NCBI GenBank assembly: GCA_951406725.2 | Contig: OX597833.1 | Coordinates: 44,082,001-44,146,000 of the forward strand | Source of the DNA: Octopus vulgaris | Lineage: Eukaryota | Direction of reading: 5' to 3' | Length of the DNA stretch: 64,000 nt | Part shown: positions 14,033 to 60,085 of the stretch, in pieces | How positions within the stretch are numbered: the first letter of the stretch is position 1 | Layout of the letters: every line of letters begins with the position of its first letter | The notes under the pieces: generated by a model | Told to the model about the DNA's origin: nothing | Seen by the model: only the letters and a program-made list of their open reading frames with translations | The model's database searches: none | Made by a program: the position numbers and the translations under genes

Positions 14033-14078
14033 ATGTTGTTAGTTATGATGTTACTGATGTCTTCTTACACTTCGGCTT
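14033..14078 (+). CDS. gene A exon 1: signal peptide MLLVMMLLMSSYTSA
   Basis: ATG, hydrophobic core, T-S-A cleavage motif, phase-1 donor T|gtaagt that joins in frame to the Ig exon; conserved in copy B. Confidence 0.75.
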
Positions 14079-14274
14079 GTAAGTTAATATTAAGAAACAT
14101 AATATTTTTTTCTGTTACAAAACTGAATCTTCTTCTCTGAGATAACATGCTTTCATCTTTGAAAGACACAGTATACACACACGCACACACACTCACACAC
14201 ACACACACACACACACACACACACACACGCACATTATCTACACAGCGACATATACTTTTCAACAGCGTCACCAC

Positions 14275-14890
14275 AAATACCTATTTCTTTACTGCCCACA
14301 AGGGGGCTACACACAGAGAGGGGACAACCAAGCATAGACATAGTTATTAAGTCGATTACATCAACCCCCAGTGCGTAACTGGTACTTAATTTATCGACCC
14401 CGAAAGGATGAAAGGCAAAGTCGACCTCGGCGGAATTTGAACTCAGAATGTAACAGCAGACGAAATACTTATTTCTTTATTACCCACAAGGGGCTACACA
14501 CAGAGAGGGGACAAACAAGGACAGACACAGGTATTAAGTCGATTACATCGACCCTCAGTAAGTAACTGGTACTTAATTTATCGACTCCGAAAGGATGAAA
14601 TGCAAAGTCGACCTCGGCGGAATTTGAACTCAGAACGTAACGGCAGACGAAATACCTATTTGTTTACTACCCACAAGGGGCGCTTACACAGAGAGGGGAC
14701 AAACAAGGACAGACATAAGTATTAAGTCGATTACATCGACCCCCAGTGCGTAAGTGGTACTTAATTTATCGACCCCGAAAGGATGAAAGACAAAGTCGAC
14801 CTCGGCGGAATTTGAACTCATAACGTAACGGCAGACGAAATACGGCTACGCATTTCGCCCGGCGTGTTAACGTTTCTGCCAGCTCGCCAC
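14275..14890 (-). mobile_element. tandem array of ~3 tRNA-SINE units (single unit in copy B at ~40550-40785; family also at ~33000-33225, 58875-59110)
   Basis: Repeated unit cccacaaggggc..gtcgattacatcgacccc..atcgaccccgaaaggatgaaaggcaaagtcgacctcggcggaatttgaactcag; minus-strand tRNA-like head. Confidence 0.8.
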
Positions 14891-15705
14891 AAATACCATA
14901 ATACGAACAACACAACACACTGTTTAATTCAGTACACACACCACACACCATCATGCACACTCTCACACCCACACAAACACATAATATCCAAACACAGAGA
15001 ATATATAGATACACACGCAACACGCATAAACACGCATAAACACGCATTGACACGGATAACATTCGCTCACAAAAATACACTATAGATGTGCACGCTATTT
15101 GATTACAGATAAACGCACACACACACACACACATACACACGTGCACACACCACCTGAATAAGCTCACATAAACGGCTACACGTGCAACACAACAGACACA
15201 CGCGCACACAGACACGTTAACTTCACAAATATACACACGTCCATATGCACACACACACACGTCCATATGCACACACACACACACACATACAGAGGAATAC
15301 ACAAAACGCACATTTCTCCACACAACACATACACTAGGTTAATTTTACGCACAAACACGAACACACACACACATACATACATACATACATACATACATAT
15401 ATGCATACATACATACATACATACATACATACATACATACATACATACATACATACATACATACATACATATGTACGTAAGTACGTACGTACGTACGTAC
15501 ATACATACATACATACATACATACATACATACATACATACATACATACATACATACATACATACATACATACATACATACATACATACATACATATATAT
15601 CCCGTTCTGTCAGTGTTTGTAAAAGTTTATAAAGACAGTATTTTTCAACTGATTTCCTCCTGACTGCGAACGTACGATACTTATGTTCCAGGGATGGCTT
15701 TAGAC

Positions 15706-16003
15706 CAGTGGTTTTTAACCAGGGTTCCGCGGAACCTTAGGGTTCTACCAGTACAGTCCAGGGGTTCCGCAAGAAGTTACAAAACTGCTAGGATCTTTTC
15801 ATTTTGAAAGCCAGATTTTTCAGTTTTTTTCTAATGAACTAAATAACGCAAGAAGTTACAAAACTGCTAAAATCGGCTGTAATTTTTAATTCTCCTGTGC
15901 AGATATGTGTGCATAAGACTATTAAATTATGGCACAGGGGTTCCTCGAGCCATTGGAATGTTTCCTTGGGGTTCCACTCCAGCAAAAACTTTGAAAAGCA
16001 CTC
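15706..16003. mobile_element. hAT-type MITE (copy B: 41382-41599)
   Basis: cagtg...cactg termini; 8-bp TSD ctttagac clearly on both sides in copy B. Confidence 0.8.
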
Positions 16004-16904
16004 TCTTTAGACTCTTAAATTTTCTCACAATATCAGTAACGTGCCCCTTGGGAGCAGAAAAATACATATATCCGAATGCACACACTCACACCAACCAGTA
16101 CATGGAATGCATGTCACTTCACATAATGTACACACTGACACACAGAAGTCCACATAATTTTCAGCTAACCCACTCATACTTACTCACACACTAGCATCCA
16201 TTCACATAAACACGTTCATGGACACCGTCCTCCCAAACACACACGCGCTTGTGCACCTAAACGCCTTGCATATTACCGTTATCCTTATTATTATTATCTC
16301 ACTTTCATTCAACCTCTATTTTCCGGTCATCTCGCCATGTTGGACAATTTTTCTCTGCACTTCCGTTTCTTTCCCAATTTTCTTTATTCTTTCACAGTTT
16401 TCATCATTCTCTCTCCGTTCTTTTTCCTCTTAATTCTTTCTGTCGAAAAGCATAAGCTTTTGCTTTCATCCCGATAATAATACACCTGCTGTCTTCGTCT
16501 TCTGTTATATATATATATATATATATATATATATATATATATATATATATATGATATATATATATATATGATATATATATATATGATATTAGCCGGTGTT
16601 TTTCAAACGATGAATAGCTTTGCGTAAACCATGGATCGTTTTGTTCTCTTACTTTGTTATCATCTTATAATCATCTCATAATAATAACTTTTATGACTCG
16701 TATTACTACCCCAGTCAATCTAAATGTATATATTTGTCGTTACCTGTCATAATAGCCTTTTTTTTTATTTGCAATGTGCATTTTCGTAGATTTTTCATAT
16801 TTTACCCTTACATTTCCACGTGTATTTTATTTCTTTTTATAACATATTTCTACTATATATATATATATATATATATATATATATATATATATATATATAT
16901 ATAT

Positions 16905-57114: not shown

Positions 57115-57312
57115 ATAGAAGGAAAGATCCAGAGAAGGAAGACGGAGGGAAAAAATCGCTAACGGTACACACGCGGTCACAGTTTGAATGATAAACATTT
57201 TGATTTCATTTCCAATTTGGAAAACAAAACTGCATTGAAAACTAAGATAAAAACATAAATATTATGTTTCTATATATTATTTTGTTTATAATTTTTTAAT
57301 TTTTATTTCTAG

Positions 57313-57345
57313 GTACTGAGCAGAAAGCAATCAGAGACAATGCAG
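57313..57345 (+). CDS. gene B exon 4: GTEQKAIRDNA
   Basis: Identical to 31632-31664 with the same splice sites. Confidence 0.75.
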
Positions 57346-58697
57346 GTATCTTTAATCTTCTAACTTTTGCTTCTTTCAGTTACTGGATGGTGGCCATGCT
57401 GGGCTATTTTCTAATAGTCTTTGTCATACTTATTCCCGAACTGATACGTTGTGGGCATGTAAACAAACCAACACTGGTTTTCCAGTAATGGTGGGGAACA
57501 AACACTAATGTACACATCTATACATACATACATGTACACGCTACACACACTCACACACACATACATACACACAGATACCGCGCACACACAAATATATACA
57601 CGACATTCTTGGGTCAAGCATAGACCTATGCAGGGTACCTGACACCTAGTGTGACATCAGGCGCTCACACCTCTGTCAGCAGGGTATTGGTCTTAGTGGA
57701 CGTTGCACCGAGATCTGAGTGTCAAGGAAGGCCAACTGCCCAGTCGTTTTCGAAGAAGTTTTGCGCCGGGTTCCATTGATAATTTACAAAAATCCCTTGC
57801 CTGGCAGTGCTACAGAATAACATTGCCGATTCGTAATAAAGTGTACCGGCATGATATTCCCCTCAGCTGCTCTTGCCCTTGATGCACATTGCATGTGAAA
57901 GATGATGCGATTAATGTATTAGTATAGTGCTTGAGCATCGTTGATTTCTGGAGTTATGTCTACCAGCTGCAATCACTTCTCGGACGGATCTGGTTATAGG
58001 TCGACTCCAAAGTGAAGATTGCTTCCTTGCTATCCTTTGATTTTGAAGGGTAGGCAGATTTCCTCTATTAGGTGCTTATGGTGAAAGATGATGCGATTAA
58101 TGAGAAAGAGACCAAACCATCATTGACTTTTCATGTTTAAAAGGAAAGTGAGCGTGGAGAGCAAGGTCCTTTCTCCCAGTAGAACTGTTACACTGTGGAT
58201 GAATATAGCAAGAATGGCTCGAGTGAATTGTCGTAACCTAAGCGTGCCCATGTAGTTACAGAAGCATGGAGGAGAGAGAAACACAACAGTATTCCTGGTG
58301 AACAGGGGACTCAGGATTACTTGGTTACTGTGAGGTTACTTGGTTACCCTTGGGTAGCGTTTCCATTTTAATTGGGAATTTTGTTGTTTTGGTTTTCTTC
58401 TGATTATTTATTGTTTACATGTGTTTATGTAAATCTCCAATATCCTTGATTACTGTTTCTGAGGCTGCGAGCTGGTAGATTCATGAGCACGCCGTAAAAA
58501 ATGCTTGGCGGCATTTTGTCCGGCTTTCTGAGTTAAAATGCCACCGAAGTTGACTTTACTTTTCATTCTTTCAGAGTCAATGAATTAGGCACCAATTGAA
58601 TACTGGAGTTGATGTAATCGATGTCCACCTTCACCAAAGTTTTTGGTCTTGTACCAAAATTAAAATGAAATGTGCTTTTTTTTACTTTCTATTACAG

Positions 58698-58777
58698 ATA
58701 AATTATCTGATGCAAATATTATTACTAAGATTTTGAAATTTGCAGCAACACTGCTTGTTATTGGCCATTTTCATTAA
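58698..58777 (+). CDS. gene B exon 5 coding part DKLSDANIITKILKFAATLLVIGHFH* (donor at 58815)
   Basis: Homolog of 32826-32905, one G>D change. Confidence 0.78.
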
Positions 58778-60012
58778 GGATTTCGGAAAACAAGCCCCAG
58801 CAGAATCAAAAAGTGGTTAGTATTGTATTTTTCATTTTCGTTCCTTTGATTTTGTCATTCTTCTATATAATATATTTCTTTACTACCCACAGAGGGGTAT
58901 GTATGTATGTATGTAAACACAGAGGGGACAAAAAAGACAGATTAAGTCGATTACATCGACCCCAGTGCGTAACTGGTACTTAATTTATCGACCCCGAAAG
59001 GATGAAAGGCAAAGTCGACATCGGCGGAATTTGAACTCAGAACGTAACGGCAGACGAAATACGGTTACGCATTTCGCCCCGCATGCTAACGTTTCTGCCA
59101 GCTCGCCGCCGTTCTTCTATATAATATTATTGATTAAGTTTGCGATTATGTCGAAGTGGAAATGGTACACCCCTCCCACGGGACAAATGGTATGATTCAG
59201 CCACTATAAAGTGCGACAACGTCAACCAGTACGGGTAGTCGTCTATCAGTCGTTGTAGAATAGTTGCACGAGTTCTCTGTTGGAGTTAAGTATCAGTTAA
59301 GGGTTATAGTCGAGTTCGACTCAACAGTGATGGTAGGCGGTTCAAAGACGCTGTTTTGCAGAGCTATCAGCAATAGCACGATAGACGAAGCGATGTATTA
59401 CTACTCGGGTATAGAAGAGATAAACTGTATCCGATACCAGAAAAATGGCCACTATAGTAGATACAACAGCTACAGTCACGACAGGGACCACACATTATAG
59501 ATATGGAAAACACATCATAACAGCTTACTGCATTGGTTTTATTCTAAACTCATCGTGCATGCATACATACATACATACATACATACATACATACATACAT
59601 ACATACATACATACATACTTACATACATAGGTACATACATACGTGCATGCATACATACATACAAGCAACACCAGTCGTGAAGCGCTGGCTGAAGTTAAAT
59701 ACATACATACGGACATACATTCATACATATATTCTCTCTCGCTTTCACTGACACAATTACATACATAGATACACACATACATACATACATACATACATAC
59801 ATACATACATACATACATACATACATACATACATACATACATACATACATACATACATACATACATACATACATACATACATTCATATATACATACATTC
59901 ATACATACATACATACATACATACATACATACATACATACATACATACATACATACATACATACATACACGTATAATTTCTTTCTAAGTTGGCAATGCTT
60001 TCTTTTTTACAG

Positions 60013-60085
60013 GTTATTTCGAAACTTCCAAGCGAAAATTAACTCACATTTTCTCCGGAAATAAATATTTGACTACATACTATAT
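60013..60085 (+). other. gene B exon 6: 3'UTR with AATAAA (60060-60065)
   Basis: Homolog of the 34379 exon. Confidence 0.65.

Follow-up and report, generated by a model that had tools for sequence, protein, structure and literature searches.

We analysed a 64,000-nucleotide stretch of Octopus vulgaris DNA (the window; positions 44,082,001-44,146,000 of contig OX597833.1, C20, in assembly GCA_951406725.2, G000), in which a sequence-only reading had placed, at 14033..60085, a tandem cluster of unannotated two-immunoglobulin (Ig)-domain receptor genes. Tandem copies were present; the window itself holds two genes, copy A and copy B, of a cluster that extends far beyond it. Splicing the five plus-strand exons of copy A yielded 798 nt, encoding 265 amino acids and a stop without an internal stop, and all four introns were GT..AG and phase 1. 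Exon 1 (14033..14078), which runs from ATG to a GT donor in phase 1, encodes a 15-residue signal peptide; it may have a longer upstream part or be preceded by a 5' non-coding exon, and a counterpart with ATG and donor was found in 9/9 further paralogs checked. Exon 2 (22520..22852) encodes domain 1, a modelled V-set Ig fold under diversifying selection, and exon 3 (23798..24103) encodes domain 2, read as a constant-type Ig domain from its Cys-Trp-Cys core and the model of a relative (P0051). Exon 4 (31632..31664; AG/GT, phase 1-1) is an 11-codon linker, and exon 5 (32826..32905) carries a hydrophobic tail, resembling a glycosylphosphatidylinositol (GPI) signal in a rule scan, and the stop; 37 residues follow domain 2. 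One Ig domain per phase 1-1 exon is the classic architecture of the immunoglobulin superfamily (IgSF).

The splice model of copy B, also on the plus strand, yielded an equivalent 801 nt (266 amino acids) with the same phases: signal peptide (40278..40323), domain 1 (47925..48257), which shares 68-69% of its amino acids with that of copy A, domain 2 (49804..50112), which has gained one Cys codon, linker (57313..57345) and GPI-signal-like tail with stop (58698..58777). The two proteins were 79% identical over 257 aligned residues. Self-comparison of the window placed the genes in tandem duplication units of about 26 kb, 12002..37120 for copy A and 38573..64000 for copy B, with common transposable-element (TE) fragments and microsatellites, most blocks being 83-96% identical; a third unit lies beyond the window. 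There was no assembly gap between copies A and B, and 656/15,833 aligned non-coding sites (4.1%) differed between the units.

Transcription and splicing were examined in four public runs (X15, X1, X17 and X2) aligned to window positions 22400-24200, which cover the region of exons 2 and 3; the kind of the runs that gave spliced joints is guessed or not known, and no matching run is on record as RNA. The 945-nt intron 2 was skipped at GT..AG in 3/4 runs (X15, X1 and X17; two studies), and a 293-nt X1 contig crossed the exon 2-3 joint with zero differences from copy A. In 2/4 runs (X15 and X17) a contig passed from exon 3 into exon 4 sequence, and run X2 showed neither exon 2 cover nor the joint in this region. 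Junctions 1-2 and 4-5 were supported by RefSeq models of Octopus bimaculoides (P0051 and P0063) with the same layout of signal peptide, two domains, linker and tail. Contig C1 carries an intronless copy that aligned in a single frame to copy A residues 4-261, so the domain joins are independently supported. Exon depth reached 5,000-20,000 in X15 and X17 against 20-100 in non-repeat intron, although contig depth sums the paralogs and is no measure of expression. Contigs exactly matching copy A and paralog-type contigs occurred within the same runs.

The genes had been called unannotated, which overstates the case: they are mis-annotated, and the models that exist are faulty or uncharacterised. 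The model of copy A (P0003) lacks the signal exon and part of domain 1; in P0002 the domain-1 exons of adjacent copies are run together, and P0001 likewise joins neighbouring genes. The public proteins that match the window exons bear the name 'hypothetical predicted protein' (Octopus vulgaris). Those of relatives from O. bimaculoides, O. sinensis and Argonauta hians are called 'uncharacterized' or, in a few cases, 'Ig-like domain-containing'. Literature searches, beyond whose reach most subscription papers lay, found no published description of the family.

Structure prediction and fold searches bore out the two Ig domains. The AlphaFold2 model of domain 1, folded with 26 paralogous exons, had a predicted local distance difference test score (pLDDT) of 91.9 and strands A, B, C, C', C'', D, E, F and G. 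Its top structural match had Z 11.8 and a root-mean-square deviation (rmsd) of 1.9 over 95/110 aligned residues, and the top rows were all V domains (single-domain antibody VHH, T-cell receptor and CEACAM); Foldseek with domain 1 by itself gave no row at E<=0.001, and its listed rows were all V-type Ig. Across the 26 exons of the domain-1 alignment (the frameshifted L007 and L012 and the near-identical L028 and L029 left out) C24, D91 and Y95 were invariant (26/26) and C97 was present in 25/26, which supplies the B and F strand cysteines and the D-x-x-x-Y-x-C motif at positions given for V-set core residues in PMC9546547. The core Trp of strand C was replaced by Leu36 in 26/26, and there were three further cysteines; domain 1 is thus modelled as a V fold with a variant sequence profile. 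No Pfam family matched the window exons, and PF00047 (ig) matched 5/26 domain-1 members (best E 3.9e-5); the leucine in place of the core Trp and the three extra cysteines explain why Pfam misses this domain. Sequence profile searches of the Protein Data Bank (PDB) returned Ig proteins at best E values of 0.048 and 0.0074, which are not significant.

In domain 2, C24, W39 and C86 were invariant in 19/19 aligned exons (the alignment leaves out L031, L033, L035, L041, L050 and L051), and 0/19 matched a classical Ig model in Pfam. The full-length model of the relative P0051 (pLDDT 86.3) showed a pair of Ig domains followed by a disordered linker and a terminal helix, with no third domain; its domain 2 had seven strands (pLDDT about 90), and SIRP-gamma and CEACAM1 were among the structures that it matched along both domains. 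From these two-domain models domain 2 appears to be a constant-type Ig domain, a reading that leaves the subtype (C1, C2 or I) unfixed. The idea that domains 1 and 2 are an internal repeat was rejected (profile comparison probability 0.2%). Copy A has eight cysteines, which may pair as 40-113, 83-98 and 151-213 and, between the domains, as 105-189. The extra Cys codon in domain 2 (window 49804-50112) is common to copy B and the next two copies and leaves an odd cysteine, so dimers are possible. A homodimer prediction for domain 1, made with no alignment, scored 0.00 with the domain's own fold uncertain and is uninformative on binding.

Domain 1 of the A-like group is under strong diversifying selection, and the linker and tail are fixed. 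Between copies A and B, exon 2 differed at 42/333 sites (12.6%), exon 3 at 19/306, exon 4 at 0/33 and exon 5 at 1/80; 0/47 equal-sized non-coding windows reached the divergence of exon 2 (maximum 30 differences). The domain-1 changes comprised 39.5 non-synonymous and 2.5 synonymous ones (Fisher p=0.0014). Among the six intact closest copies, mean dN (non-synonymous divergence) in domain 1 was 0.115 and mean dS (synonymous divergence) 0.029, against an adjacent intron distance of 0.032. Variable columns by codon position numbered 28/27/9 of 110, compared with 52 of 625 in the intron, so that the third-position rate equals the intron rate. Codon models run with our own code on the same six copies gave a single-ratio omega of 4.3 (p=4e-4 versus 1) and preferred M2a over M1a (p=2e-7). 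Of the 18 selected domain-1 sites, 13 lay in the BC, C'-C'', DE and FG loop regions, which make up 34/110 residues. At G000:C20:1,040,305-1,081,471 (L066-L068 and L071) lie four copies with a domain-1 dN of 0 and intron divergence of 1-7%, a pattern of purifying selection or homogenisation opposite to that of the window's group. In another subgroup (G000:C20:44,578,867-44,733,138; L027-L030 and L081, model P0005) domain 1 is nearly unchanged among five copies, and the P0005 model has threonine-rich mucin-like stalks followed by a cationic tryptophan/arginine-rich stretch.

The paralogs were numerous. A first genome search matched 46/54 candidates at E<0.01, representing 45 distinct places, and later searches added four, giving at least 49 domain-1 exons in the assembly: 12 at 0.86-1.10 Mb, 5 at 2.85-2.95 Mb and 31 at 43.64-44.73 Mb of C20, hence 48 in three clusters of one contig, and one retrocopy on C1. 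A match on C23 (E 0.64) was left out of the count. At least three domain-1 exons are broken by a frameshift or stop, and there are fragments in addition to the retrocopy. Between 43.88 and 44.35 Mb each copy stands as a gene by itself, and almost all possess signal, domain and terminal exons of their own; a protocadherin-like variable/constant locus for the tail-less genes was rejected on this basis. Of 16 terminal exons read there, 15 had a short hydrophobic tail and one was frameshifted; three are stray duplicates. Copies A and B are part of a recently formed set of seven genes on both strands (six with intact domain exons, one frameshifted) together with fragments. In the domain-1 tree (57 rows, few columns) the six A-like copies formed their own clade with support 100/99, and several older members paired one-to-one with O. 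bimaculoides genes. The third plus-strand copy (G000:C20:44,166,052-44,177,154) has a frameshifted tail exon and, across a 100-base gap, a second intact linker and tail pair, which may be alternative ends or an assembly join.

The proposal of a lineage-specific family was upheld. A profile search over 1.84 billion representatives returned 36 hits below 1e-10 plus an Argonauta protein; among 33 of these 37 family hits whose source was checked, 30 came from Octopus and one from Argonauta, two had no name, and no other group occurred. No squid or cuttlefish protein was among the family hits, for which divergence or sparse data are possible reasons. Ten weak hits (E 9e-10 to 8e-4), probably long repeat or multi-V proteins, were kept outside the family count. 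O. bimaculoides has its own clustered set.

The family ends in three kinds of C-terminus: a GPI-like tail, no hydrophobic tail, and, at one locus, a transmembrane segment. GPI-like tails occur in copies A and B and most mapped neighbours and are stronger in relatives of other clusters. In our own rule scan the copy A tail had a hydrophobic 11-mer of mean 2.40 ending 4 residues from the C-terminus and a candidate omega site of small residues (S243-G-A) 22 residues from the end; in the P0051 model the tail is a helix after a disordered linker. These features fit a putative GPI anchor for A and B by rule scan. To call A and B 'receptors' goes too far, since neither has a cytoplasmic tail or could signal alone. 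Three O. bimaculoides proteins (P0010, P0012 and P0019) end without a hydrophobic tail, and no tail-like exon was found within 5.8 kb read downstream of the G000 ortholog of P0010; some family members thus seem to be secreted.

The transmembrane locus (G000:C20:43,529,836-43,750,992; L128-L147 and L084) has three cassettes of signal plus domain 1 before one transmembrane segment and tail; one cassette is broken and one lacks its own domain 2. Between the O. sinensis and G000 models the transmembrane segment (31/31) and short tail (87/87) were identical, whereas domain 1 matched at 64/103 residues (62%); the transmembrane segment was 29/31 (94%) identical to that of Argonauta. The two intact domain-1 exons at this locus differed with dN 0.31 and dS 0.24, against 9/399 sites in the next intron, and the O. 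sinensis model uses a cassette type that is not the nearest to the transmembrane segment in G000 (92% versus 53%). The cassettes are possibly alternative ectodomains on a constant tail, or the result of exon-limited replacement. In the long tail of 193 residues 1/10 tyrosines, within an optional exon, fits the consensus of an immunoreceptor tyrosine-based inhibitory motif (ITIM), as defined in PMC9546547. The intronless C1 copy is a retrocopy of the transmembrane member (L023:1390-2298 / L083, at G000:C1:165.12 Mb) with a frameshifted tail. It is open for 303 codons across both domains and the transmembrane segment before the frameshift and could encode a tail-truncated membrane protein; its domain 1 showed a dN/dS of 2-3 against the parent cassettes. 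The C-terminal end of the transmembrane member, which we take to be a PDZ-type motif, is kept in Argonauta.

The introns contain microsatellites and transposon remains, in agreement with the description of them as TE-filled, and Pfam matches to reverse-transcriptase, mariner transposase and Pif1 helicase pieces were obtained in 5/14 frames scanned across the window. Intron 1 of copy A holds a minus-strand mariner-type element (20443..21699) with terminal inverted repeats, a TA duplication and an empty site in copy B; it is 92% identical to a copy at 5930-7130 that has a Transposase_1 match. Just after exon 1 of copy A, at 14275-14843, a dispersed repeat of 187-188 bases stands three times in tandem; it is single in copy B. 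Intron 3 of copy B contains a private insertion (55175-55997) with a 235-codon minus-strand open frame and a short tandem repeat at one end; it looks like a truncated long interspersed nuclear element, with no Pfam match at E 0.01. A very recent local duplication and inversion (62448-63662; 99% identity) is private to unit B, and Pif1-like helicase fragments at 539-1176 are probably a Helitron remnant.

An orphan terminal exon of the family lies on the minus strand at 10877..10956, with an intact acceptor, a 25-codon tail and no matching upstream exons in the window. It is 99.3% identical to the last exon of a paralog at G000:C20:44.236 Mb and was left by local duplication; its candidacy as a shared constant exon was therefore rejected. 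This terminal exon occurs in three near-identical copies (the window exon, G000:C20:44,227,739 and 44,236,107), which flank the plus-strand block of young genes and mark an inverted duplication. A lone domain-2 exon lies at G000:C20:44,230,887.

The sequence-only reading had listed immune, allorecognition, gamete and neuronal wiring roles without choosing among them, and the diversifying selection supports a recognition role indirectly: an outer domain that outpaces its non-coding surroundings is typical of proteins whose target keeps shifting, as microbes do. The explanation that we favour, and to which we give an even chance, is that this is a birth-and-death family of surface recognition proteins engaged in a host-microbe arms race. 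Under this explanation the signal peptide would lead the protein into the secretory route, the C-terminal tail would be exchanged for a GPI anchor, and the protein would be displayed on the cell's exterior, domain 2 forming a stalk and the loop end of domain 1 providing the putative binding site. Having no cytoplasmic part, it might act by binding, trapping, shedding with its ligand or signalling via a partner. The ligand would itself be evolving and would most likely be a microbe or parasite surface; either the proteins capture microbes, or they are host proteins bound by pathogens that they must keep escaping. A duplicate would be kept if its domain 1 gained a new specificity and would otherwise decay, and the transmembrane member, with its conserved tyrosine-bearing tail, would be a candidate signalling arm. 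The selection pattern favours an immune role and speaks against wiring.

Several points weigh against the arms-race explanation. The loop regions that hold most of the selected domain-1 sites were drawn after the sites had been seen, and C'/C'' is also part of the sheet face used by adhesion molecules. Sites under selection occur in domain 2 as well (omega 2.2; M2a p=5e-7 in a set that contains a pseudogene and a fragment); in intact copies alone its variable columns were 13/11/12 by codon position, a weaker and mixed signal. The trees of domain 1, domain 2 and the intron differ, which means that the likelihood tests, but not the counts, may be inflated by gene conversion; intron 3 gave no usable tree since one copy is non-homologous there. 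Selection is not family-wide, with dN 0 at 1.04-1.08 Mb and a ratio of 1-1.75, on few changes, at 44.58-44.73 Mb; the 44.29/44.32 pair had a domain-1 ratio of 5.5, and because the same counting yields all three outcomes the signal is no artefact of the method. With a value of 2.40, against 3.2-3.6 in four other members, the A and B tail has modest hydrophobicity and could be a plain one that is cleaved or secreted. The ITIM exon is absent from some isoforms and from the Argonauta protein, and a single match could be chance. No member bearing an immunoreceptor tyrosine-based activation motif (ITAM) was among the proteins retrieved, the G000 tails having been read mainly at 43.56-43.76 and 43.88-44.35 Mb. 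A role of A and B as decoys of the transmembrane member was rejected, domain 1 of A being 36% identical to it and the two lying in separate clades. The run labels are coded, and reproductive and venom proteins show positive selection just as typically.

Among the alternatives, reproductive recognition is improbable but ranks highest: the proteins would be GPI-anchored or shed components of sperm, spermatophore, egg or female tract, evolving under sperm competition or sexual conflict. A whole-domain dN/dS near 4 and a species-restricted burst would suit it, as would the exon depth: two runs from a single study reach thousands and the two others show about 6 or none, a pattern compatible with narrow tissue expression. 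It also gains from a general observation, not on this family, that genes of octopod-ancestor age are most expressed in male reproductive tissue (PMC7656900). Two of the 26 domain-1 exons touch the Pfam Izumo-Ig family, but only at E 0.054, which is not significant. A set of about 49 copies that includes secreted, GPI-like and transmembrane forms, the last with a tyrosine-bearing tail, is more reminiscent of immune clusters than of gamete ligands.

A within-species self/non-self code, in which polymorphic, paralog-specific, like-with-like adhesion would act on skin, suckers or haemocytes and the transmembrane member would give an inhibitory 'self' signal of the sort proposed for Hydractinia Alr proteins, appears doubtful. 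An atypical V-type domain 1 in a tandem cluster with an ITIM-consensus member parallels the Alr complex (PMC9546547). The runs contain many sequence variants, among which paralogs and alleles are indistinguishable. However, just one signalling-tail locus was found, and the Alr domain layout is not common to both. Octopuses are solitary, and we know of no described tissue-fusion allorecognition in them. We hold at similarly low probability the bolder idea of an octopod germline-encoded variable repertoire, in which some 40 tail-less V variants would form a sensor or capture array and one signalling locus would splice alternative signal and V cassettes onto a fixed stalk, membrane segment and tyrosine-PDZ tail, making an independent self/non-self system with antibody-like loop hypervariability.

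We find it hard to credit a neuronal wiring code of the Dpr/DIP or Beat/Side kind, with two-Ig tags in the octopus nervous system. Size and layout match Dprs and Beats, which have two Ig domains (PMC10084454). A feature search, useful as a lead only, listed arthropod two-Ig clusters of 258-304 amino acids (score 0.94); the presumed PDZ-type end of the transmembrane member and the conserved 1.04-1.08 Mb subgroup (dN 0) could also fit. Nevertheless, a dN/dS near 4, pseudogenes and turnover between congeneric species would be unexpected for wiring tags, and none of the 47 proteins obtained at E<=0.001 tied the family by sequence to Dpr, DIP, IgLON or Beat. Six O. sinensis gene identifiers were absent from three supplement files of an octopus brain cell atlas (PMC9712504), a weak point, as these files may lack full lists.

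Secreted or shed binders aimed at other species or chemicals, in venom, mucus, ink or contact chemosensing, are likewise very unlikely. Duplication with positive selection is common in venoms, and P0010, P0012, P0019 and apparently the G000 ortholog of P0010 have tail-less ends. Set against this, the tail exon of A and B is strongly conserved (1/80 sites), no toxin-like domain was matched, and the family includes a transmembrane member with a signalling-type tail. Finally, an artefact of uncollapsed haplotypes or of duplicates decaying under relaxed selection is largely refuted for A and B and next to negligible: the cluster does contain 100-base gaps, of which one separates the third plus-strand copy from the fourth, and some nearly identical copies, but none of the gaps separates A from B, the units carry private TE insertions on top of their non-coding divergence, relaxed selection would bring dN/dS near 1 and not 4, copy A-exact and paralog-type contigs share runs, and O. 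bimaculoides has a clustered set too.

Known systems offer analogies. The family would work like CEACAM, SIRP or Alr clusters and differs from each in features that define their members. With CEACAMs it has in common a tandem cluster, one Ig domain per exon, an N-terminal V domain under diversifying selection and lineage-specific gene number (PMC5112662). For frog CEACAMs the same signature, an N-terminal Ig domain with dN/dS above 1 in a cluster of variable size, was read as pathogen-driven (PMC5112662). A tailed transmembrane member stands beside tail-less ones in both, and CEACAM N domains were among the top fold matches of domain 1 (Z 11.3). CEACAMs also have GPI-anchored and secreted forms beside an inhibitory ITIM receptor. 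The octopus proteins differ in showing no significant sequence similarity (CEA at E 0.2 and 1.2 in PDB profile searches) and in having B-F cysteines plus three more in domain 1; unlike in CEACAMs and paired receptors, the tail-less members do not mirror the transmembrane domain 1, and no ITAM partner was seen among the retrieved proteins.

Hydractinia Alr genes resemble the octopus family in being tandem IgSF genes with a V-set domain 1 mostly missed by Pfam yet found by structure prediction, an ITIM in a few tails and pseudogenes in the cluster (PMC9546547). Alr domain 1 lacks the B-F cysteines that octopus domain 1 keeps, and most Alr proteins span the membrane and contain I-set and Fn3-like domains, whereas most mapped octopus members end GPI-like and the model shows no third domain. 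Beats and Dprs share two extracellular Ig domains, about 260-300 amino acids and multigene status (PMC10084454), similar arthropod clusters being near in the feature search; Beats are reported there only from arthropods. No sequence homology to them was detected, and the octopus genes are tightly clustered, positively selected and turning over between species. Gastropod VIgL/FREP proteins are likewise a diversified family with molluscan Ig domains poorly detected by automated tools and a proposed immune role (PMC9334734), but the octopus proteins and their relatives have no fibrinogen, C-type lectin or galectin domain and instead a putative membrane-anchored tail. The V+C fold arrangement recalls SIRP, CD200R, B7, butyrophilin and nectin ectodomains, with SIRP-gamma matching over 192 residues (Z 11.4, rmsd 5.0) and structure atlas rows of OX-2-like, CADM, butyrophilin and ICOS ligand clusters (TM-score 0.5-0.6); at 9-19% sequence identity this common fold shows neither function nor orthology.

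New here are the strong diversifying selection and a family that is apparently undescribed, having been overlooked because Pfam barely detects domain 1 and the gene models are fused or truncated. Snails, bivalves, insects, urchins, amphioxus and Hydractinia have described families of diversified recognition proteins, and none is named for cephalopods in the available parts of a 2026 review (PMC13428168). The family supplies a concrete cephalopod candidate, with about 49 genes, expression and a whole-domain dN/dS near 4. Even if its role should prove reproductive, it would be a large, strongly selected octopod family of a kind that standard family-expansion surveys would miss. Its members offer targets for studying octopus recognition of pathogens, mates or self, and the resistance of a farmed species to disease.

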